From the sequence record PQ863256.1: DNA of 64,000 nt; one strand, written 5' to 3'. Positions within the stretch are counted from its first letter, which is position 1. Every line of letters starts with the position of its first letter. Position numbers and translations under genes: made by a program. The notes under the pieces were generated by a model. It was not told the DNA's origin. It saw only the letters and a list, made by a program, of their open reading frames with translations, and did no database searches. The stretch is from Escherichia phage Ptacy1479. Shown here piece by piece: positions 26,333 through 60,745 of the stretch.

Positions 26333-26626
26333 CTAGAGACGAAGCCAAGTTTGATAGTCAGCTTCAGTGTAATGGTTGTTCCGAGAGTTGTTTTTCATTT
26401 CCTTGAGAGTAGCTCTCAGGTCGATGTTATGCTCTCTCCTTGTTCTATTCGGGTCTGTATCTTCTAATAGATGGGAGTGATCACTACAAGAGTAGTGCTT
26501 ATAGTGGTCCCTGTACCCCCTATTTGTAGAATACTTGGTCATTAAAGTTGCAACTCTTTTTACACCCTCTGCTTTACAGAATTTACAGTAAGTGTGAATT
26601 GTACATCTTTTTGTTTCTGCTGACAC
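26333..26626 (-). CDS. hypothetical Cys/His-rich protein
   Basis: 97 aa ORF with CKFCK and HYKHYSCSDHSH. Confidence 0.3.
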   Translation of the reverse strand: MSAETKRCTIHTYCKFCKAEGVKRVATLMTKYSTNRGYRDHYKHYSCSDHSHLLEDTDPNRTRREHNIDLRATLKEMKNNSRNNHYTEADYQTWLRL

Positions 26627-26636
26627 TATAACCTCT

Positions 26637-26951
26637 TTATGAGCTTAAAGCTCCTTTGCGTGCTCCAGCTGCTTTTCCAGCTCGATCACCACTTTTGCCG
26701 CCGTTTGAACGGTTTGAGCTGACTGATTCAACACGTAAGTTGCTTGACGCATTAGAACCTCCAGACTTGACAGCTCGTTTGTGTCCAACATCTTTACCTC
26801 TGACAGCAGCTTTTCCATCGCGCTTTTCAACGATGCGACGTGCACGGTGGCGCTGAGCATCTCCGCTCTTGCTCCCAACGCCTGTCTCACCACGGGCAAT
26901 TGCGGTACGTCTTTCTTGTGCATAATCTCTCTTTCCTACATGATCTGCCAT
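26637..26951 (-). CDS. basic Gly/Ser/Lys/Arg-rich protein
   Basis: Strong RBS AAGGAG 7 nt upstream of ATG 26951 and promoter-like motif upstream; overlapping alternative-frame ORF 26645..26923 judged spurious. Confidence 0.4.
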   Translation of the reverse strand: MADHVGKRDYAQERRTAIARGETGVGSKSGDAQRHRARRIVEKRDGKAAVRGKDVGHKRAVKSGGSNASSNLRVESVSSNRSNGGKSGDRAGKAAGARKGALSS

Positions 26952-26987
26952 TTAAAACTCCTTAATATATCAGTGTACACTAAGGAG

Positions 26988-26996
26988 TATACATTA
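26988..26996 (-). promoter_or_regulatory. TAATGTATA promoter-like motif
   Basis: - strand ATAATGTATACTCC about 40 nt upstream of ATG 26951. Confidence 0.35.
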
Positions 26997-27368
26997 TGAA
27001 TGATGTTAAAACTCTGCTAAGTACTTAATATCAGAGGCATATACCTCATCAAAAGAAATAGGCTCTCCGTTGTAGAGGAGTTCTATTTTCAGTATACCAG
27101 AGCATTTGGTGTCTTTAGAGTCAACTCTGATAGAGAGTTTATCAACTATATGAGCTTTAATCTCTTCTATCATTAACTCTTGAGTATTACTCACTCCACC
27201 CTCCCGGTGGTACAAAATCATCAGGAACGTCAATGATAGTAGGTTCTCCATCATTCATGCAGGTGTCTTCATTGAACTCTTCACACTCAAAACATGCTCG
27301 TTCGATATTTTTGTAGAAGTCGATGGTTGCTGAACCATCACCACAATCTCGGATAACTAAAGCGACTT

Positions 27369-28112
27369 TCATTTATCTTGTTCCTTTTCCATAGCTTTAA
27401 CAATGGCTTTACAGAAACCAGAACGAACAATGTCATCTGACTCACCGTCTACAATCTCAGCAAACTCATACAGATCATGTTCATCAATAAAGTTAGTAGC
27501 CCAAGTCAGGCCACTCTCACGACCACGCATATCATGCTGGTTTGTATCACCCATGCAAAACAGCTGAGAGGTTTCTCCCAATCGAGTCATGATGGAGAAG
27601 GCTTCATCCTTAGTTGTGTTCTGGAACTCATCTACGATAACAATAGCATCATTGAAAGAACGACCACGGAGGTATTCCAGAGGTACGAACTCGATGTTGC
27701 TATTACCAAGTTGGCATTCATAGAACCCCTTACCATATCGCTGAGTAATAACATCAATGATAGGCATCAGGTAAGGTTCAAACTTCTCACGCATTCCTCC
27801 CGGAAGTAACCCAAGAGAATTGCCCATGCCAACCGAAGGACGACTCAGAATGATCTTCTGAATCTTACCACTCTTCAGTGCATCGATAACCGTGGAAGTG
27901 ATTACAAAGGTCTTACCACAGCCCGCAGGAGCGTCTGTGAACACAACTTGTTTAGTCTTAATAGCATTGAGTAGCTCAGACTGAAACTGGTTCTGAGGGA
28001 CTACAGGCTTTGCTAAAACCACCTCTTCATACTCTCGCTTACCTTTACGAGTAACAAGTGCTTCCCGACGAAGGTCTTTCCGTGATTCTTTCCGTGATTG
28101 ACGACGACTCAT
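27369..28112 (-). CDS. phoH: PhoH-like ATPase
   Basis: Walker A FTDAPAGCGKTF and Walker B-like IVIVDEFQN in PhoH-type arrangement. Confidence 0.7.
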   Translation of the reverse strand: MSRRQSRKESRKDLRREALVTRKGKREYEEVVLAKPVVPQNQFQSELLNAIKTKQVVFTDAPAGCGKTFVITSTVIDALKSGKIQKIILSRPSVGMGNSLGLLPGGMREKFEPYLMPIIDVITQRYGKGFYECQLGNSNIEFVPLEYLRGRSFNDAIVIVDEFQNTTKDEAFSIMTRLGETSQLFCMGDTNQHDMRGRESGLTWATNFIDEHDLYEFAEIVDGESDDIVRSGFCKAIVKAMEKEQDK

Positions 28113-28306
28113 TTACGCTCTCCAATTTCTTCGTAATGACACTCAGTAGTTAAGCAGTCTTTACAGATTGCTGTATAAACCCTGACGTTAGTAAATCGTT
28201 TGTTCTTCCCTTTGGTTGGAGAGCCTTTGGCAAGCTCTCTGATAACCTTGTTACTTAAATGAAGGTTTGTTCCTTCACATCTAGAGCACTTCACCACAAT
28301 GTCCAT
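28109..28306 (-). CDS. small zinc-ribbon protein
   Basis: 65 aa with CSRCEG...CKDC pairs. Confidence 0.3.
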   Translation of the reverse strand: MDIVVKCSRCEGTNLHLSNKVIRELAKGSPTKGKNKRFTNVRVYTAICKDCLTTECHYEEIGERK

Positions 28307-28653
28307 TCAGTAAGAGACCACAGGGAGTCACCTATGTGGGCATTGTCATTCCTGATGAGGTCTTTGATTTTATCAACATCAGTTAAGTGAGTCACATTCA
28401 AAATATCCTCAACATCCGGGGTATATTTAAATATGGCAATAATACTGTTGTGATCTTCAGCATATCTTTCTAGAACATAAACTACACTCATAAGGCATCA
28501 ACCTCTCTCAGATACCACCATTTAAACTCAACACCTTTACGACCACCACCATTCATAACCCAACGCATCATCTCATCAGGTATTCCAAAAGGTTTAAGTT
28601 TCGCATAGTTAGGTTTTTCTAAGAACACAGCTTCAAAATACTCACCATCTTGA

Positions 28654-29010
28654 TCATACTGGTTGATTGCTCTTGTTAGTACCCATACTTTCATTACTCT
28701 TCTCTTTATGAAGTCTATAAACAGCTGTCGCCATGCAAGCAACAGCTTCATTATGCGGAAGGTGCATCCCTGTAGAACCATCCCAATCTTTGAACTCATT
28801 GTCAAAGACTCCGGTAGGTTCTGGATACAGAGCTTGCAGCTCCACTAGATCATTAGCAACTTGTTGCCATTTATCATCAGACCAGATAGGGTCATCCAAC
28901 CAGTAATACAAATAGGAATGGATGATCAATTGCCTTCTATGCCGATTGATTACTTCAGCGGGACTTATTTCACTTCCATTTGAAGTCCTAAATGTATTAC
29001 CGTCGATCAT
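28654..29010 (-). CDS. stand-alone protein resembling NAD-dependent DNA ligase domain Ia
   Basis: IHSYLYYWLDDPIWSDDKWQQVANDLVELQALYPE aligns with LigA N-terminal HxYLYxxDxPxIxDxxYDxLxxELxxLExxHPE signature; no adenylation domain follows. Confidence 0.4.
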   Translation of the reverse strand: MIDGNTFRTSNGSEISPAEVINRHRRQLIIHSYLYYWLDDPIWSDDKWQQVANDLVELQALYPEPTGVFDNEFKDWDGSTGMHLPHNEAVACMATAVYRLHKEKSNESMGTNKSNQPV

Positions 29011-29755
29011 TATGAAAATTTCCGTTCTGTTAAAAAGTATATAACTTCACTATCTGGAGACCGAACTTTCTCTCCATTTACTAATTTCTTAGCATCTTCA
29101 TATGAAGCACAATCCAAAGCAGGGTTATCAGGTGTTGGCTTCCCTAGGAAATATTTCCAAGTCCAACGCTCTCCGTCATCATCTTGACAGTCAAGAGTCC
29201 ACAATGTTTTCATTTAACAACCTTAAATTTGAATGTTGTTGGGTGATAATAGTGCAACCTGTTGATAGTATGCTTTGTTTCAAGGTATGTCCTACAGGAG
29301 TGGCACATAACATGAGACAAACCAGTCACAGGATTGGGCTTAAAATTGATGATAAGCTTCTCTTTCTTACAGAAGCTACAGACTTTCTTTTCCATCTTTT
29401 CTCCAGTGGTCAACGAATTGCTGAAACACTTTATGGTCGAAGGTGAAACCACGAGCAATCCCACACTCTACGAAAGTAGAAGGCATATAGTCTACATCAC
29501 CTTTAGATGTATGACCATAAACTTGAATAAGCTTTTTAATCTTACCCTTCTCTCTTCGAGGAAGCATCCTAAATGCCTCCTGAATATCTGTAATATGTTT
29601 GACTTTCATCAGAAATTCCTGCTAATCCTCTGGATTATGAGAACAGCAATACTCACATACTCCGCAACATGGACAAATTTCTACACTTGGGTCATATGCA
29701 TCATCCACTGTCATTCCGCACTTGGTACAGAACACGTCGTCATCTTCTTCCAATA

Positions 29756-30412
29756 TTAAATCTCCAATGTTTTCTTCAGAGCTGCCCACGAGATTGGGTA
29801 GATCTTAGTCATCTCTTCGTCTACAGATTTAGCAAACACTCGAACTTCATATTGAGCGTGAGAGGAGAGTCGCTGACGACACAACTCAAACCAGCCATAC
29901 AAAGAACCGGTCCACACCCACTCAGTGATCATCCCCTGAGGAAGAACAAATCGAGCTTGCTCTGGTGCAATAAATTCAATCAACTTGTCATATGCTGCTA
30001 GAGAAGCTTCATATGCATCATTAATCAGCATTAATGCTTCAGCTCGTTCTCCGTCGATGAGTTGAATCCCTGAACCTGCATGGAGGTCCGAAGGTCTCGC
30101 AAAAATCTCTTTAGGGATGAAGACTTCAACTGCTCCATCTTTATACCGCCGGGACATTTCGTTCCACGAGAATCCAACCTGATGCTTGCCCAACTGTCTC
30201 GCAATTGCGATAGGTGCTTTGCATCGGAAACTGACTTGCGGGTGTCGGAATGGGGTAACATGCTTCTCTCTTGCGAGGAAGTTGATGAGACGTTCATCAC
30301 GTTCATTTAAATCACCTTCACGGGTTACGCCAAAGGAAACTCGAGCTGCGTTTACTACGCTACGATCACTTCCCATAGCTTCGATTAATGTTGCTTGTAA
30401 TTGTTCATTCAT
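29756..30412 (-). CDS. thyX: flavin-dependent thymidylate synthase (ThyX-like, divergent)
   Basis: HVTPFRHPQVSFRCKAPIAIARQLGKHQVGFSWNEMSRRY parallels the ThyX core with the RHR triad replaced by KHQ. Confidence 0.55.
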   Translation of the reverse strand: MNEQLQATLIEAMGSDRSVVNAARVSFGVTREGDLNERDERLINFLAREKHVTPFRHPQVSFRCKAPIAIARQLGKHQVGFSWNEMSRRYKDGAVEVFIPKEIFARPSDLHAGSGIQLIDGERAEALMLINDAYEASLAAYDKLIEFIAPEQARFVLPQGMITEWVWTGSLYGWFELCRQRLSSHAQYEVRVFAKSVDEEMTKIYPISWAALKKTLEI

Positions 30413-30427
30413 CCGTGAATTTCCTTA

Positions 30428-30637
30428 TTAATATTCCTTGATTGGGGATACCACAAAACCACCAAGAGGTGAGGTAAAAGATTTATGTAAGCTTATTTTG
30501 CTATAAATCTTTGGAGCCATCTTAAGAGCCTTCTTAAAACGACGAGCATCTTTACGAGTAGCAAAATGCTCTGTAACAGGTATAGAATGGTCTTGGTAGA
30601 TATAATACATCACCGTCCAGTATTTTCCCATAATCAA
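30428..30637 (-). CDS. small protein, member of a ~65 aa paralogue family (TRKxAR..KK ... Y-terminal)
   Basis: Shares TRKDARRFKK and C-terminal Tyr with 32114..32729 triplet. Confidence 0.3.
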   Translation of the reverse strand: MIMGKYWTVMYYIYQDHSIPVTEHFATRKDARRFKKALKMAPKIYSKISLHKSFTSPLGGFVVSPIKEY

Positions 30638-30906
30638 ACACCTAGTGCAGTAGTTAAAAATGCTTTCAGGTTTGCCTCAGTCTGCATACCAGAGAGGCTG
30701 TAGTGTGCGCCACTGTTACGGTCAGGTACGACGAAAGCGGGTATGCTTCGTACACCATATTTAACAGCTTGTTCACGACCATCTCCTTCAAGGATATTGA
30801 TCTCTTCCACTTCTACATCAAACTCCCTAACAACCCTCTCAAAGGTGGGAGCCATTGCTTTACATGGAGCACACTGATCACTATAAAACTTAATTACTTT
30901 AGACAT
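30634..30906 (-). CDS. thioredoxin-like protein
   Basis: CxxC active-site-like FYSDQCAPCK near N-terminus of a 90 aa thioredoxin-fold-sized protein. Confidence 0.6.
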   Translation of the reverse strand: MSKVIKFYSDQCAPCKAMAPTFERVVREFDVEVEEINILEGDGREQAVKYGVRSIPAFVVPDRNSGAHYSLSGMQTEANLKAFLTTALGV

Positions 30907-31155
30907 GTAAATCCTTATGCAGTCAGGAGGTGAAGCAGGAACGGGATAACAACAGCTACGATAACCATGATGGTTGATGCTGTTTGAATCTCACCTTTCT
31001 TATCAGGGGTTTCTTCAATAAGCTTACCAGAAGCCCAATAAATACCACCACCAATAAAGATAGCCCAAATACCCCATACGATTGCTGATAACATATATCT
31101 ATATCCTTATAAATAAGTTCGCCCCACCTCGGGTTAGGAGACAGGGCGGAGGTTT

Positions 31156-47134: not shown

Positions 47135-47742
47135 ACTTACTCCTGTTGTTTACACTCGTCAATAACCCACTGATAAGTGGATTGCTCAGAAAAGAAACAC
47201 TGAATAAATCCAGATGTTCTCTGCGTTACCAGTGCTAGTGCACAAATCACTACCGCTGCTGCTAGCAGTTTTAAATCTAATTTAGACATATTTCCTCTCA
47301 TTGAATTTAAAAAAGGACTCTCCGAAAAGAGCCAAGCTTTAAATCCAAAAAAAAGATATTACCCAATATCTGTGGATAACCTGCTCTTAAAATATCTATC
47401 CGACGGATGTTTGAGGAACACTCCTCGCCCTAGCATCGGCCCCATACGGGAAATATATTAAGATTAGGTTAGTTGAGTCAGAATAACTCACATAGCCCTC
47501 CGAGGAAGGCTATAGGCGTTACTACAACTAAAAATCACCTGATTTTACAAAACTATCACTAAGAATTTCGTCAATCTCTTTGCTAGTCAAATCTTTCCTG
47601 AACCAGCAACAAGGAACATCCACTCATTGACCAGAGTTGTTCTCTACAGAACATCGATTCCCTGTCTTACTCTTGCATTTATAGGATTTTCCTTTATCTA
47701 GGCGATAGTGTAATCTGTAAACGACAGACACAAGTGTTATCA

Positions 47743-51505: not shown

Positions 51506-51580
51506 TGGCGTTCCCTCGTGGAATCGAACCACGAATAAGAGCTTAGAAGGCTCCAGTTATATCCGTTTAACTAAGGGAAC
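51506..51580 (-). tRNA. tRNA-Arg(UCU): tRNA-Arg (anticodon UCU)
   Basis: Manual fold: acceptor GTTCCCT/AGGGAAC, D-stem GTTA/TAAC, anticodon stem GGAGC/GCTCT with loop CTTCTAA, T-arm CGTGG-TTCGATT-CCACG, discriminator G, encoded CCA; 75 nt. Confidence 0.8.
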
Positions 51581-51586
51581 ATTACA

Positions 51587-51943
51587 ATGAAAACTTGCAC
51601 AACCTGTCACACCCAAAAGGAAGATTCAGATTTTTACAAGAAAGGAGATCGACTTCATTCTATGTGTAAACAATGCTTCAATGCCTACTGTATTGAACGT
51701 TGGAGACAAAGAAAGACTCAAGCGGTTAAAGATTTCGGAGGTAAATGTCATGACTGCAATCAAGAGTACCCAGATGCAGTCTTTGATTTCCACCACCTAG
51801 ACCCTTCTGAAAAAGATTTTGATTGGAATAAACTAAGACTCCGATCTATTGACTCTATCAGAGAGGAGTTAAGCAAGTGCGTAATGCTCTGTGCTAACTG
51901 TCACCGTATTCGTCACATCGATTGCTCTATACAATTGAGCTAA
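51587..51943 (+). CDS. HNH homing-type endonuclease
   Basis: Cys/His-rich MKTCTTCH...CKQCF...HHLDP...CANCHRIRH; lone + strand gene next to tRNA. Confidence 0.6.
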   Translation: MKTCTTCHTQKEDSDFYKKGDRLHSMCKQCFNAYCIERWRQRKTQAVKDFGGKCHDCNQEYPDAVFDFHHLDPSEKDFDWNKLRLRSIDSIREELSKCVMLCANCHRIRHIDCSIQLS

Positions 51944-53120: not shown

Positions 53121-53153
53121 AATTAAAACAACAAAGGCCGCCCGAAGGCAGCC
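53121..53153 (-). terminator. rho-independent terminator
   Basis: - strand stem GGCTGCC-TTCG-GGCGGCC followed by TTTGTTGTTTTAATT, right after stop of 53159..53410. Confidence 0.5.
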
Positions 53154-53158
53154 TCTCT

Positions 53159-53410
53159 TTATTGACTAACACCACAAATCAGATGATTCTGTAGCATTTC
53201 GTCTTCTGCATTATACAGGAATGCAAACATCAACTCCTTAGCCACATCTCTTGAGCAATTAAGACACTTAGAGATTTGCGTTAGTTGCATGTTGCGTTCT
53301 GTGTGTTCCATCAAGGCAATGCGAATGATTTCTCGCATACCTATCACATGGGTTGTCTTAACCGGCATAGGTCCAACTGCCTTGCTTGTTACAGATGGCT
53401 GACATTGCAT
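53159..53410 (-). CDS. hypothetical protein
   Basis: 83 aa ORF followed by terminator. Confidence 0.3.
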   Translation of the reverse strand: MQCQPSVTSKAVGPMPVKTTHVIGMREIIRIALMEHTERNMQLTQISKCLNCSRDVAKELMFAFLYNAEDEMLQNHLICGVSQ

Positions 53411-53856
53411 GAATCCAGAAGCCTTCCAGTTTCAGAGCACCATTAGCTACTGCATCCATACGTTCAGGGCGGTTCATACGTTTGGTTGATACTTTCATAC
53501 CTATCTCTCTTTGTTAGTGGAGGCATTATTGCCAGTTGATATAAGGGATAGCCCTAGTCAGTAGACTAATCCTGACCGCGTACTCATTGCCGACCTTCTC
53601 TGCCTAAGAGTTCAGGTTCTAGAGCTATCTCTTATTCCAACTGGTGAAGACTCCCTACCCCTAGGAAGTCTCCTAAATCCCAAACCAATACGTACCCCTA
53701 CATATCGGAAAGTCTATCGAAAATTAACAGGTTTTAGTCTAACACCGGATGTTCGAGCAAGCTCTCCCTAGCGGTGCGGCATATGCCTGATTGATATAGT
53801 TAATGAGGAACACCCTCACATAGCCCTCTGATAAACACAAGGGCTATAAGTCGATG

Positions 53857-54168
53857 TTACTTAACTGATTCAATCATTTTACGAACGTTAGCCACACCTT
53901 TCTGAATCAAAGGCAGGAACTCATCACCCAAACTAGAAGATAGAAGACTCAAACTCCCCGTCTTAATGCCACGACATGCTGACTCTACTTCTTCCGGCAA
54001 CAATGTCATATTAAACCACGGAGATTTAATCTCTACTGTAAATCCGGGGTTATATCGGCTCTCGCTATGATTAAACTCCAGATAGGTAACACCGGAGCAG
54101 TGTTTCATTTGAGCACGAATTGTTACAGCGGGCTTACATATCACAAAAGAAGAAACAGACATAATCAC
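53857..54168 (-). CDS. hypothetical protein
   Basis: 103 aa ORF. Confidence 0.3.
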   Translation of the reverse strand: MIMSVSSFVICKPAVTIRAQMKHCSGVTYLEFNHSESRYNPGFTVEIKSPWFNMTLLPEEVESACRGIKTGSLSLLSSSLGDEFLPLIQKGVANVRKMIESVK

Positions 54169-54173
54169 TTACC

Positions 54174-54392
54174 TTACTTTTGAGTCACATGTAGATCAGG
54201 GCGAGGTGTAACAGTAGTGCCGCCCTTAAAAAGACCAACATGACCAGTACGAAGATTGGCTGCTTTATGTGAACCATTATTTGCTACCTCTTCAAGCAGC
54301 AACCAGAACCGGCTATCATAAAAGAAAACCGACCCACTTTCTAGATCACATATTTTTGAAAACTTAAGAGGTTTACCTTCATTGATTTCCAT
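54174..54392 (-). CDS. ~80 aa multicopy family protein (array 2)
   Basis: LESGSVFFY and AANLRTGHV motifs. Confidence 0.4.
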   Translation of the reverse strand: MEINEGKPLKFSKICDLESGSVFFYDSRFWLLLEEVANNGSHKAANLRTGHVGLFKGGTTVTPRPDLHVTQK

Positions 54393-54647
54393 TTACTTAC
54401 CCTTGTTGGTAATCACTGCATCAGGAATAAGGACTACAGGAATATCTGAAGCGAGCTTCATAACCTGATTGATGTTTAAATTAAGCACCACACAACCGGC
54501 ACTAGGCTTAACTTCGGCTACGTGTGGAGTGAAGAGTTGCACAATCATGTAATAACTTATACCGGTGTTTTTAACTTGGAACACATCCCCAAGCTTCAGA
54601 TCACTCAACTTAAGTTCTGGATTCTTCCACTCAAGATCAATCTTCAT
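54393..54647 (-). CDS. ~80 aa multicopy family protein (array 2)
   Basis: LKLGDVFQV motif. Confidence 0.4.
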   Translation of the reverse strand: MKIDLEWKNPELKLSDLKLGDVFQVKNTGISYYMIVQLFTPHVAEVKPSAGCVVLNLNINQVMKLASDIPVVLIPDAVITNKGK

Positions 54648-54883
54648 TCTTCCGCCTTGTTCGTGAGTCGAGCGTTGTGAACTTTCTTAACAACTTCATG
54701 AGTGAAACCATCAGAAATCACACCAGTTGAAAGGTTAATATATTTTCTCTGATCTCCTGATTTGTTATAAACACTTGAGGACATATAATAATCGCTCGTG
54801 TTCAGAGGGAATTGAAAAACCTCCCCCGACTCTAAATCACCAAGACAAATAATTTTAGGGGTGTAGTTCATGTCAATCTTCAT
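54644..54883 (-). CDS. ~80 aa multicopy family protein (array 2)
   Basis: LESGEVFQF and INLSTGVISDG motifs. Confidence 0.4.
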   Translation of the reverse strand: MKIDMNYTPKIICLGDLESGEVFQFPLNTSDYYMSSSVYNKSGDQRKYINLSTGVISDGFTHEVVKKVHNARLTNKAEE

Positions 54884-55109
54884 CTTTAGCCTCGATGTTG
54901 GTTATATGAAGATCACTACGTACCTGGCAGACTTCATCCCGTTTAAAAGGCATGAGCTTTCCAGTTACCACATCAACACAGTTCACATAGTTATCTGCGT
55001 ATAATGTGTCGGTTCTGATATAAAGAGAGTCTTTACGCTCAAATAGAACGCCCGGCTTCATGTTATTTAAGCGAAGCATTGTACGATCGGATTTAATATT
55101 AACTTTCAC
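54873..55109 (-). CDS. ~80 aa multicopy family protein (array 2)
   Basis: MKPGVLFER and VDVVTGKL motifs. Confidence 0.4.
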   Translation of the reverse strand: MKVNIKSDRTMLRLNNMKPGVLFERKDSLYIRTDTLYADNYVNCVDVVTGKLMPFKRDEVCQVRSDLHITNIEAKDED

Positions 55110-55111
55110 TG

Positions 55112-55369
55112 TTAATCCACCTTATTAGTAAGACGAACATTATCTACTATCTGAACAACAGTATCTTTTCTTAACATTGTTACTTTATCTGAAGTAAGAT
55201 CTACTACTACCCTTTCATCAGACTTCCAACTAGCCGAATAAACGGTTGAGGAATCTAGCTTTACTGTAAGATATAATTTATTTTTAGGTGGCACAGTTTC
55301 AAAAACACTTCCAACCTTCAGATCTTTCAGCTGCTTAACTACAGGGGCTGTATTAATGTCATGCTTCAT
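55112..55369 (-). CDS. ~80 aa multicopy family protein (array 2)
   Basis: Start at ATG 55369 with AGGAG RBS; LKVGSVFET motif. Confidence 0.4.
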   Translation of the reverse strand: MKHDINTAPVVKQLKDLKVGSVFETVPPKNKLYLTVKLDSSTVYSASWKSDERVVVDLTSDKVTMLRKDTVVQIVDNVRLTNKVD

Positions 55370-55655
55370 TGTTAATCTCCTGCTGCTTAGCAATAGCTAC
55401 TCGCAAGTCTTCATTAGCACGAGCAAGGCGTAATACTTCATGATTAAGGCTCTGAAGACGCTTATTTCTGTCTTCAACTTGCATAATAAGATCGTTAAGT
55501 GTTACTTTAACTTTCTCATTGTACATCTCGTCCACTCGGACTAGGGATTTATACATTCTCTCCCAGCTTGCTGCTTTGTTTCTGAGAACAATAAACCCTA
55601 TAACGCTGATAGTTAAACAGAGTACAAAAAGGAATTTATATACCTCTAAAGTCAT
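55359..55655 (-). CDS. membrane-anchored coiled-coil protein
   Basis: N-terminal TM FLFVLCLTISVIGFIVL followed by heptad-rich segment. Confidence 0.4.
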   Translation of the reverse strand: MTLEVYKFLFVLCLTISVIGFIVLRNKAASWERMYKSLVRVDEMYNEKVKVTLNDLIMQVEDRNKRLQSLNHEVLRLARANEDLRVAIAKQQEINNEA

Positions 55656-58800: not shown

Positions 58801-59623
58801 GATATTCACCTTTCAATTGTAAGGGCGCTATTGCCCCGCTCTCTATGAGCTTGCTTAAGTCACTATTAACTTAACTCTAACCACTCACTATTAAGTAGTT
58901 ATAGGTAAGTGGGGCGGTCTTATCAGGAGTTAACCTTGCCGCCCCCTTATCCGTGATGTTTCATCTGGTATCTTTAATTAGTCGCTATAAACGAAGCCGA
59001 CCTGATAGCGATGATCAATCATCACAATAAGGCTATGCGTCCGACTCTAATTAGTTACGTTTATTGTAACCGTCGGCAATATCGTCTACTTTGTTTTCGC
59101 TCCCGCCTATCCTTTGTGCCAACTCCTAACCGCTAACCATCGCCCACTACGGGAGGTTATTGCGGAAAGGTCATTGACCGCCTAGTATTCCGGCGTTTTA
59201 TATCTTTCAGCAGGTTTACTACATAACCCGACTATGTACATTCCGATACTCTGGACTCTCAAGCCGTTCACATCGTAAACGTTCGCATTAAACCTTATTG
59301 TTAAATAGCAATTTGCCACTTTTTAACCACTCCCCGCCGCTCTCAATTGAGCGTTATTTCTTCGGGCTTGCCTACCCTGATTAACTTCTTTCACTGTAGC
59401 GCCTTGTTAGCGATGACCGCCGCTACCCTTAACCGTGGGCGATTAGCTTAAGTCTTTGCGTGCACTCAATGAATCCGTTTATCAGTGGTGACGTTTCCAG
59501 TAAGGGATTGTAAGGCTGTTTTCTCTGATAGTTTAGAGAGTCTTACACCGTTTTATCTGGTATGTTATCCGATGGTTATTATCATCTAACATATTCAACC
59601 GATATAGGAGAATGTTTAAATTA

Positions 59624-59634
59624 TTAAAGAGCGG
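59624..59634 (+). repeat. TTAAAGAGCGG repeat copy 1
   Basis: Exact 11-mer shared with the copies at 59859 and 60171. Confidence 0.5.
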
Positions 59635-59858
59635 TAAATCTATCAGCGTGCTTTCTCACGCTATGCAACTGTTAGCCGTTGTTGCGCTTTTCACTGAAGC
59701 GGTGATTTGCTTAGTGAGTGCTCATTATGAATCATGTTGTTTTCGCTGTCAACCACTTTTTTAATCTTTTTTCGTCGTTCCCGCTATTGGGAGGATATAT
59801 CAATCAGCTTTATTTGATTGAGGATTAAGCGGTGAGGCTTAACTTATGATTCATATTG

Positions 59859-59869
59859 TTAAAGAGCGG
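59859..59869 (+). repeat. TTAAAGAGCGG repeat copy 2
   Basis: Exact 11-mer. Confidence 0.5.
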
Positions 59870-60170
59870 TTACTACATTCACAGCTTAACACATCGTGTT
59901 AGCTTGTCAAACTCTTTTTATCATCTTCTTTTATTCCGTTCCCTTATCTCGCGTGAATCTTTGCGAAAGGGCAAGATGATAAGTCTGATTTATCTCTCAG
60001 GAATCTAGTGCGCTTTCAAGCGTTGACCATTTGAAAGTATCGAACAAATGAGGCTTATTTTGTTGCTCATCATCCGCCTGTTTCACGTATGAATCAGGAA
60101 TCAATTCTAGCGGTCAACTAAGCGCCTTATAGTAATGACATTAACGCCACCTGTAAGACAAATCATGTTT

Positions 60171-60181
60171 TTAAAGAGCGG
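60171..60181 (+). repeat. TTAAAGAGCGG repeat copy 3
   Basis: Exact 11-mer preceded by T-run. Confidence 0.5.
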
Positions 60182-60278
60182 GATTTTTCAAGTCATCGCT
60201 GACTTTGCTCATTATGTATCAGGCTTTTTTCGGTGTCAATACTCTTTTTAAGAATATTTTCACTTTCTAGCCTGATTT

Positions 60279-60288
60279 TTAAAGAGCG
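60279..60288 (+). repeat. TTAAAGAGCG repeat copy 4
   Basis: 10-mer core preceded by T-run. Confidence 0.5.
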
Positions 60289-60745
60289 TAGCACTTTCAT
60301 TGTGCGTCTTACTGTCGGTATTCCTACCGCTCCCCGTTGAAGCCTTTTACCGTGATGCTAATCACCTATCGAGGAGTTTTTACTTCTTGTTGCTTACTGC
60401 TTACTACGGGATTCATATTAATATATAGGAAAATCTTGTCAATACCCTTTTTTCAAATTATTTTATATCTTACTGTTTTATAAAGGAATTTATTTTAGGG
60501 AGGATAGGAACTACAAAGAAATCAGGGGATAGAGGAACGGGCGCGCGTGATACATCATAAGAAACGGCTTGTAAAGCAATAATAAGCGGCCTATAACGCA
60601 TCACAACGAGCTAAAGGGGAGTAAGGCATACAATCACCCTATAAAATAGAAAAGCCTCGCATAGAGGCTTATAGGAAGGATTAGAGAATCAGATAGATTA
60701 TGACCATAGGCATGACTACGGCACAATAAAGAAGAAAGAGTAAGC

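Follow-up and report, generated by a model that had tools for sequence, protein, structure and literature searches.

A conserved multi-domain RNA fold in an early-operon gap of Escherichia phage Ptacy1479, a candidate cis-acting leader

Introduction

What is the role of a 358-nt gap inside the early operon of Escherichia phage Ptacy1479? This phage is a phiEco32-like Kuravirus (Gordonclarkvirinae) with its early genes on the minus strand of the window analyzed here (the whole stretch of 64,000 nt, from record PQ863256.1, to which all positions refer). The gap (intergenic region 2, IGR2; 53499..53856, minus strand) extends from the stop codon of a 103-aa open reading frame (ORF) to the ATG of a 46-aa ORF. 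A preliminary description had recognized it, although with a start at 53515 that is slightly inside the true edge at 53499, and proposed an internal promoter or regulatory region, or a small RNA gene.

The phiEco32-like phages serve as a model system for how phages control the host polymerase (by gp36 and gp79), and published work on them concerns promoters and proteins only. In the literature searched, we found no paper that describes the gap, the repeated module within it, or boxA, RNase III or transcriptomes in these phages. On the sense strand, the gap, which lies inside an operon, forms a multi-domain RNA fold that is subject to both purifying and compensatory selection. We predict, with a probability of roughly 55%, that it is an internal, transcribed, cis-acting structured leader of the early operon that functions in RNA processing and translation control.

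Conservation and folding of the gap RNA

Conserved counterparts of the gap are present in about 96 records of related phages, with 84-98% identity across three genera of the Gordonclarkvirinae (Kuravirus, Nieuwekanaalvirus and Suseptimavirus), and most of the relatives' records have no feature annotated at its position. The surrounding 1.1 kb matches Escherichia phage vB_EcoP_WFI101126 at 97% identity, and 763 nt of the same query match phiEco32 at 96.7%, where the counterpart of the gap (67672-68029) is flanked by phi32_113 and phi32_112. The genes of the region in WFI101126- and phiEco32-type records are all on the strand equivalent to the minus strand of the window.

Folding of the gap's minus strand gives a z-score of -3.45. 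From seven sequences, RNAalifold predicts 88 pairs in 14 helices, including 12 compensatory pairs. On the predicted pairs 98.7% of the cells are paired, compared with 40-45% when the partners are slid by 1-3 columns, and 13 pairs change on both sides, compared with 0-4 when slid. None of 500 shuffles reached the observed pairing values, although the slid control is the fairer one because consensus structure and pair counts came from the same alignment. Many of the conserved pairs are G-U and would be A-C on the opposite strand; thus, the minus, sense strand is the one under selection. The hairpin that the preliminary description wrote on the plus strand exists, but its functional strand is the minus. 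That description's suggestion of a regulatory region fits a gap that is conserved, structured and selected for RNA base-pairing.

These patterns bear on the idea that the gap acts as DNA, as a recombination linker, a protein operator, or a replication or packaging site. Homology with most relatives stops at 53862, at the upstream stop codon (AAGUAAC), and the preceding gene varies between phages. A break placed exactly at the upstream edge, though the upstream genes differ, is what a DNA element might produce, and hairpin 1 (see below) is an inverted repeat. However, the compensatory changes preserve pairing rather than sequence, the opposite strand would have A-C mismatches in place of the many conserved G-U pairs, and the variable spacing of the hairpin 1 arms (12 vs 6-8 nt) is unsuited to a dimeric operator. 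We consider a DNA-level function very improbable.

The gap has no credible ORF: the only one in it is a 33-aa ORF with a TTG start (53739-53840), and the earlier observation of a gap without an ORF of 60 aa or more holds. Several GenBank records call small ORFs here (a 34-aa ORF in Bas93 and Bas94, others in UKE3 and Bas86) and, with the TTG-started ORF, these could be taken to mean that the gap encodes one or more very small proteins. However, the ORFs disagree from record to record, indels of 1-2 nt among relatives fall inside the stretch, and substitutions track helix pairing rather than codon position. The annotated ORFs are probably spurious, and a coding function is scarcely plausible.

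In the consensus model, the gap RNA is resolved into three domains, all on the minus strand: a 125-nt module of four hairpins, two hairpins with GGGG loops, and an imperfect duplex of 21-26 bp. The second domain comprises hairpin 4 (53685..53708), with a 10-bp stem and the loop GUA-GGGG-UAC, and hairpin 5 (53646..53673), with a 12-bp stem, the loop CUA-GGGG-UAG and four compensatory pairs. Both hairpins end in UA-GGGG-UA and both stems covary. UAGGG motifs are found five times within 215 nt (53552-53770), compared with 44 on that strand of the whole 64 kb. The third domain holds the long hairpin 6, described below, and hairpin 7 (53518..53533; GGCA-AUAA-UGCC). The UCCA after hairpin 7 is predicted to pair with UGGG at 53682-53679 and so to close the domain.

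A repeated module and its possible role in antitermination

Domain 1 (53710..53862, minus strand) is closed by a long-range helix in which AAGU (53862-53859) pairs with ACUU (53713-53710) and UCGA (53854-53851) with UCGA (53720-53717), and which takes in the stop codon of the upstream gene. One pair of this helix covaries (U-A in four sequences, C-G in three), and NJ01 and KBNP1711 have C.A at that position, as read from the sequences. Hairpin 1 (53819..53848) pairs AUAGCCCU with AGGGCUAU around a 12-nt loop and has no U-run after it. Hairpin 2 (53804..53818; UGAGG-GUGUU-CCUCA) abuts hairpin 1 in the alifold fold, whereas the parse of the module copies places a single G between the two; its fifth and last pair is G-C, U-A or C-G across copies. 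The pair of hairpins begins 9 nt past the upstream stop codon. A small hairpin (53778..53787; GGC-AUAU-GCC) has GCC/GGC or CCC/GGG in other copies.

Hairpin 3 (53742..53777, minus strand) has a 6-bp outer stem, a 7x7 internal loop, and an inner stem of 3-5 bp with a tetraloop. The outer stem covaries (A-U to G-C and C-G to A-U) and the internal loop is invariant (CUAGGGA opposite GAACAUC). A non-canonical pair beside the inner stem is A.G in 13 copies and C.A in five, and flips in both copy lineages, which suggests that the internal loop is structured. By inspection, the loop does not match the K-turn consensus.

The second copy of the hairpin reported in the preliminary description is confirmed at 53820-53847 (ATAGCCCT-12 nt-AGGGCTAT), with the 11-mer CACATAGCCCT found exactly twice, at 47489 and 53817. 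By itself, the 11-mer is within chance (three matches at up to one mismatch, compared with 0.94 expected; 5 of 100 shuffles reach three). The repeat is much larger, however: both gaps contain, on the minus strand, hairpin 1, GTGAG, 43-53 nt and CTAGGG-N12-16-AACATCCG. The GUGAG opens the second hairpin, and the later hairpin carries the internal loop CUAGGG / AACAUC. CTAGGG-N8-22-AACATCCG alone has two matches in the window, compared with 0.00 expected (none in 100 shuffles), and a fuzzy descriptor search of the window identified no module copies besides the two. In IMG/VR, the composite was found only in Kuravirus-type contigs of 76-77 kb, in two length versions (81-85 and 95-98 nt) that match the two gaps. 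Among 19 different copies of the module, drawn from the two gaps in about ten phages, every helix cell is canonical.

The first copy is in intergenic region 1 (IGR1; 47400..47525, minus strand), with hairpin 1 at 47513-47492, hairpin 2 at 47490-47474 and hairpin 3 at 47439-47400. The arms of hairpin 1 are 12 nt apart in the gap, 6-8 nt apart in most IGR1 copies and 12 nt apart in SU7-type IGR1 copies. Hairpin 1 is not an intrinsic terminator, given that no U-run comes after it on either strand (the stem leads into GUGAGGGUG in the minus-strand reading and into AAGUCGAUG in the plus-strand reading) and that the terminator scan made no call. Within 20-90 nt after the IGR1 module are two terminator-like hairpins on the minus strand, T1 (47380-47347, identified by eye and by folding) and T2 (47333-47309, identified by the scan). 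T2 is kept in all relatives and stops a few bases short of the ribosome-binding site of the next gene.

Because T1 and T2 are inside the early operon, expression of the early genes downstream needs read-through, and antitermination or attenuation is thus a serious rival to a processing leader. The module would then be a processive antitermination signal or a terminator-control element of attenuator or riboswitch type, with nascent RNA that binds either the elongation complex, as put RNA does in HK022, or a protein of phage or host origin, as nut/boxB binds N. Early-operon terminators would be read through, and the rest of the gap would serve as an expression platform. Consistent with this are the two copies per genome, with the fold kept and the downstream sequence different, one of them 20-90 nt before tandem terminator-like hairpins that must be read through, and the recurrence of minus-strand terminator-like hairpins through the early cluster. 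Hairpins 1 and 2 adjoin each other like the stem-loops of put RNA, an exact boxA follows each early promoter and is clustered in five relatives, so that the operon may use Nus-type antitermination, and the lambdoid homologue of the hairpin 6 core (see below) adjoins nutL. However, the module has no similarity to the part of HK022 that presumably holds putL and putR (26500-31500) and is not directly downstream of a promoter. In the gap, no terminator follows the module until past two genes, boxA-modified polymerase alone could explain read-through, and the case is built from sequence and position. We regard this explanation as possible but unlikely.

The module is probably a binding site for a factor that acts on the elongating or processing complex. 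A more far-reaching and tentative proposal, which we also think unlikely, is that it represents an undescribed class of cis-acting RNA, present twice per genome, found only in phiEco32-like phages and marked by the invariant internal loop and the covarying non-canonical pair of hairpin 3. This RNA would bind the elongation complex or a phage or host factor, and would govern whether the terminators at 47.3 kb are read through and how the RNA is processed or translated at 53.5 kb. If true, together with boxA and the borrowed N-leader junction, a virulent podovirus would run lambda- or rrn-style antitermination with an RNA component of its own.

Hairpin 6 and its N-leader tip

Hairpin 6 (53532..53644, minus strand) pairs CCAGUUGGAAUAAGAGAUAGCUCUAG with CUAGGGCUAUCCCUUAUAUCAACUGG over 26 positions with two mismatches, and is a candidate RNase III site. 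Its duplex ends about 20 nt ahead of the ribosome-binding region of the 46-aa gene (53496..53512, minus strand; A/G-rich, AAAGAGAGAUAGGU plus AUG). Four sequence versions of the hairpin occur among the phages, all with stems of 21-24 bp, single mismatches and z-scores of -4.3 to -6.8. The tip is a 63-nt three-way-junction core (53557..53619, minus strand) made up of helices P2 and P3 and a loop-loop contact, in which a 16-nt stretch (CGGCAAUGAGUACGCG) is nearly invariant and unpaired. This tip is present in Ptacy1479, phiEco32, EP335 and others.

In a sensitive search, 67 nt of the tip were about 80% identical to P22-like Salmonella phages, in which the match sits between the nutL boxB and the start of N / gene 24 (BTP1, phage L). 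A 21-nt core pattern identified 45 loci in IMG/VR. Excluding one Kuravirus contig, every distinct version (36/38) has a boxA-like sequence, a boxB hairpin, a long stem, the core, a closing strand, a ribosome-binding site and an ATG. The boxA-like sequence at these lambdoid loci is CGCTCTTTAAC in most, with single-base variants elsewhere, and the boxB hairpins are of several types. Six Kuravirus and 14 lambdoid sequences align without gaps over 96 columns, and the model derived from them comprises an outer stem, a two-part P2, hairpin P3 and a four-pair loop-loop contact. In this alignment 99.0% of the cells are paired, compared with 30-49% when slid, and ten pairs are compensatory. The N / gene 24 leader of P22-like phages thus contains a conserved three-way junction with a loop-loop contact supported by covariation, and the sequence comparison indicates that hairpin 6 and that leader's hairpin have homologous tips.

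Some lambdoid versions have a lower stem (GGCUUUGGGGUG / CACCACCAAAGCU) identical to that of the lambda N leader, and we take the lambda hairpin that shares this stem with P22-like versions to be lambda's RNase III site. According to work of the Court laboratory, the RNase III cut reportedly falls in the lambda N-leader hairpin, and cleavage is said to modulate N translation. Rfam searches at E<=1 with the lambda and phage L N leaders identified no family. The Kuravirus version of the core has no match in 5,426 complete E. coli genomes, and three matches to the core pattern in species-representative genomes were all chance matches within unrelated coding regions.

Transcription signals of the gap

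A scan for sigma70-like promoters identified none inside 53499-53856 and none within or just upstream of either module copy. The motif of the phage sigma factor gp36 (tAATGTAtA; PMC8948821), which in a gp36 promoter is 6-8 nt upstream of the start site, was searched for as TAATGTATA at up to one mismatch and is absent from both gaps. The early promoters of phiEco32 and SU10 are upstream of CDS125 and in the 120/121 spacer (PMC4281155), which is about 6 kb upstream of the gap. An internal promoter, from which the 46-aa gene and its neighbor would be transcribed, could be expected of a long gap that precedes a pair of genes with a terminator-like hairpin behind them and sits at a mosaic junction, and SU7-type phages have a -10-like TATAAT between hairpins 2 and 3. 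However, this hexamer is not conserved in other phages and is without a -35; a sigma70-like -35/-10 pair and a gp36 motif are lacking, published promoter maps show no promoter here, and covariation indicates selection for RNA pairing over the whole gap, which a promoter does not need. The internal promoter of the preliminary description is thus not supported, and we consider it highly improbable.

The scan also identified no terminator inside the gap. Over the whole window, Rfam at the gathering threshold returned only tRNA and noise, and Rfam 15 at E<=10 gave no match for 53400-53950 and only sub-gathering noise for 47200-47650. Strong structure and conservation without an Rfam family, along with five UAGGG motifs in 215 nt, would be expected of an independent small or medium-sized non-coding RNA gene (a trans regulator, or a sponge for a host protein with UAGGG(G) as binding sites), and processing could free a stable structured fragment. 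Against this, the gap has neither a promoter before it nor a terminator behind it, and its helices, which take in the stop codon of the gene before it, extend to about 20 nt from the ribosome-binding site of the gene after it. Action at the RNA level, as implied by the small RNA gene proposed earlier, is retained, but a separate gene is unsupported because it would lack its own promoter and terminator and because the fold reaches the ribosome-binding site of the next ORF. We consider it improbable.

Predicted function of the gap

We predict that minus-strand transcription from the sigma70 early promoters, about 6 kb upstream, runs through the gap. Host RNase III would cut hairpin 6, as in the lambda N leader and the early intercistronic sites of T7, and would thereby detach the gp112-gp111 message from the upstream cistrons. 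The cut may then determine how stable this message, which would end at the terminator-like hairpin at 53133-53156, is and how efficiently it is translated, and hairpins 1 and 2 of domain 1 would cap the 3' end of the upstream fragment. By analogy with these systems, we give RNase III cleavage with these consequences an about even chance. PMC5371410 treats it as established that RNase III processes both the lambda N leader (Steege et al., 1987) and T7 early RNA (Dunn & Studier, 1973).

Several observations weigh against this prediction. About a third of the relatives (MN05, NJ01, PE006, Bas93/94, SU7, UKE3, ECBP2, NC-B and Bas86) lack the tip of hairpin 6 and close the stem with a loop of 5-7 nt; thus, the tip is dispensable, and the fact that P22-like phages share it may reveal little about what it does. 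No boxA or boxB is beside hairpin 6, and the nearest boxA is about 6 kb upstream. The plus strand of the gap folds well too (z = -3.29), and the covariation counts share an alignment with the structure that they support. The 46-aa protein has no relation to N in a homologue search, which returned ten clusters, none of them named and all from Kuravirus-type contigs. The literature searched yielded no transcript-end or cleavage data for the phiEco32-like group and, to our knowledge, RNase III sites are not reliably predictable from sequence.

The conserved multi-domain RNA of the early operon and the boxA sequences after the early promoters are candidates for an added, post-initiation layer of control in phages that are known for their control of RNA polymerase. 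Part of the gap RNA appears to have been exchanged with temperate P22-like phages. The analysis also provides two RNA motifs that are supported by covariation and absent from Rfam, the N-leader three-way junction and the Kuravirus module.

Early promoters, boxA and neighboring genes

Strong sigma70-like promoters were identified on the minus strand by the scan at 60442-60415, 60239-60211 and 59752-59724, and a fourth by eye near 59909. Promoters of the 59624-60442 region have the form TTGACA-16/17-TAATAT or CATAAT. An exact boxA-like CGCTCTTTAA occurs 20-130 nt past each of them (60287-60279, 60179-60171, 59867-59859 and 59632-59624, minus strand). A fifth, degenerate copy is at 59309-59301, and no further exact copy is present in the 64 kb. 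In EP335, MN05, Bas94, SU7 and UKE3, the sense strand of this region carries a cluster of three to five copies. The sequence pattern suggests that early transcription is under Nus-factor antitermination of the rrn or nut type. In the gap itself (53499-53856, minus strand), boxA (GCTCTTTAA at up to one mismatch) is absent, the nearest exact copies being those at 59624-60287. The gap's CCUCAUUAAC is boxA-like at only 9 of 12 positions and is not kept in the IGR1 copy.

About 830 nt of untranslated RNA (58810-59640, minus strand) separate the last boxA from the first early ORF, whose ATG is at 58808. This RNA folds at -256.6 kcal/mol, compared with -209.6 +/- 6.9 kcal/mol for shuffles (z = -6.8), has no Rfam match at E<=1, and has no coding sequence annotated in relatives. 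Promoters, boxA and a long structured RNA, in this order, form a layout like that of an rrn operon.

The 103-aa ORF upstream of the gap (53857-54168, minus strand) encodes a DUF7247 protein, according to the Pfam and PHROGs search, and marks a mosaic junction: this gene is common only to WFI101126 and a few others, and most relatives carry a phi32_113 homologue or a phi32_116-like gene instead. Five successive small ORFs further upstream (72-93 aa; 54174-55393, minus strand) look like tandem paralogues and share a motif near the N-terminus, e.g., L(K/E)xG(D/E/S)VF(Q/E).

Downstream of the gap are the 46-aa gene, a phi32_112 homologue (53358-53498, minus strand; its ATG is at the 3' edge of the gap), and a small phi32_111 homologue that overlaps it (53159..53410, minus strand; start at 53368 by homology to the phiEco32 annotation). 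The terminator that the preliminary description placed after the downstream gene is confirmed, past both small genes, as an intrinsic-terminator-like hairpin in the scan (stem 53156-53133, minus strand) with a T-rich tail. Apart from the upstream DUF7247, Pfam and PHROGs searches with the four flanking proteins returned families of unknown function. For the 46-aa protein, no Pfam match was obtained at E<=1, and the only PHROGs matched are of unknown function. The N-terminal 25 aa of this protein, MK.(S/T)TKRMNRPERMDAV.NGALK, are basic and nearly invariant over three genera, and the C-terminal half diverges strongly. Synonymous changes are present in the first 65 nt of the ORF, which places the conservation at the protein level and not in an extension of the RNA fold. 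The basic, invariant N-terminus is the protein's only resemblance to N, and an N-like role is speculation.

On the other side of this region, ARAGORN predicted tRNA-Arg(TCT) at 51506-51580 and no other tRNA. Beside it, on the plus strand and thus opposite to the early genes, is a 118-aa ORF (51587-51943) with Cys pairs and an HH...CANCHRIRH motif that are typical of HNH homing endonucleases. phiEco32 has no counterpart of this ORF at that place.

Comparison with known systems

Like the N (gene 24) leader of lambdoid and P22-like phages, the gap has a long imperfect hairpin with its end about 20 nt from the ribosome-binding site of the small early gene that follows, and with a homologous tip (about 80% identity over 67 nt without gaps, and the same helices with compensatory changes), in an early operon with boxA after its promoters. 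Ptacy1479, however, is a virulent podovirus rather than a temperate lambdoid phage. Its gap has no boxA or boxB, the 46-aa product has no similarity to N, and the stem below the tip is of unrelated sequence, with the tip itself missing from some relatives. About 230 nt of further conserved structure also precede the hairpin. With no adjoining nut site and no N gene after it, the gap falls outside the definition of a nut-N leader. Exact boxA (CGCUCUUUAA) occurs after the early promoters of Ptacy1479 and its relatives, in the same operon as the gap, as in rrn and nut signals; unlike those signals, the gap itself is without boxA.

The put sites of HK022 (putL and putR) are cis-acting RNAs found twice per genome, with two adjacent stem-loops, in early operons before terminators and with no obvious dedicated protein (PMC9378689). 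The module resembles them in its two similar copies per genome, its two adjacent stem-loops and its place in an early operon ahead of terminators, and it too has no obvious need of a dedicated protein. It differs in that hairpins 1 and 2 span 45 nt rather than about 70, and in its two additional hairpins and invariant internal loop. Identity with put RNA was rejected, given that the module is not adjacent to a promoter and that blastn-short against HK022 26500-31500, the interval that we presume to hold the put sites (unannotated in the record), returned only chance 9-10-mers. Short-word BLAST against lambda also gave chance matches only, and the one boxA reverse complement in IGR1 from the HK022 and lambda comparison is on the wrong strand.

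The early RNase III sites of T7 and T3 (R0.3, R0.5, R1.1 and others) recur at several junctions and leave hairpins on the 3' ends of upstream fragments. Like hairpin 6, they are mismatched hairpins between cistrons, in an early polycistronic RNA made by host polymerase in a virulent podovirus. They are single hairpins of about 60 nt, in contrast to a 358-nt multi-domain fold with predicted cleavage, and the comparison is by description rather than by sequence. By analogy, the gap most likely functions in the manner of the lambdoid N leader and of the intercistronic sites of T7.

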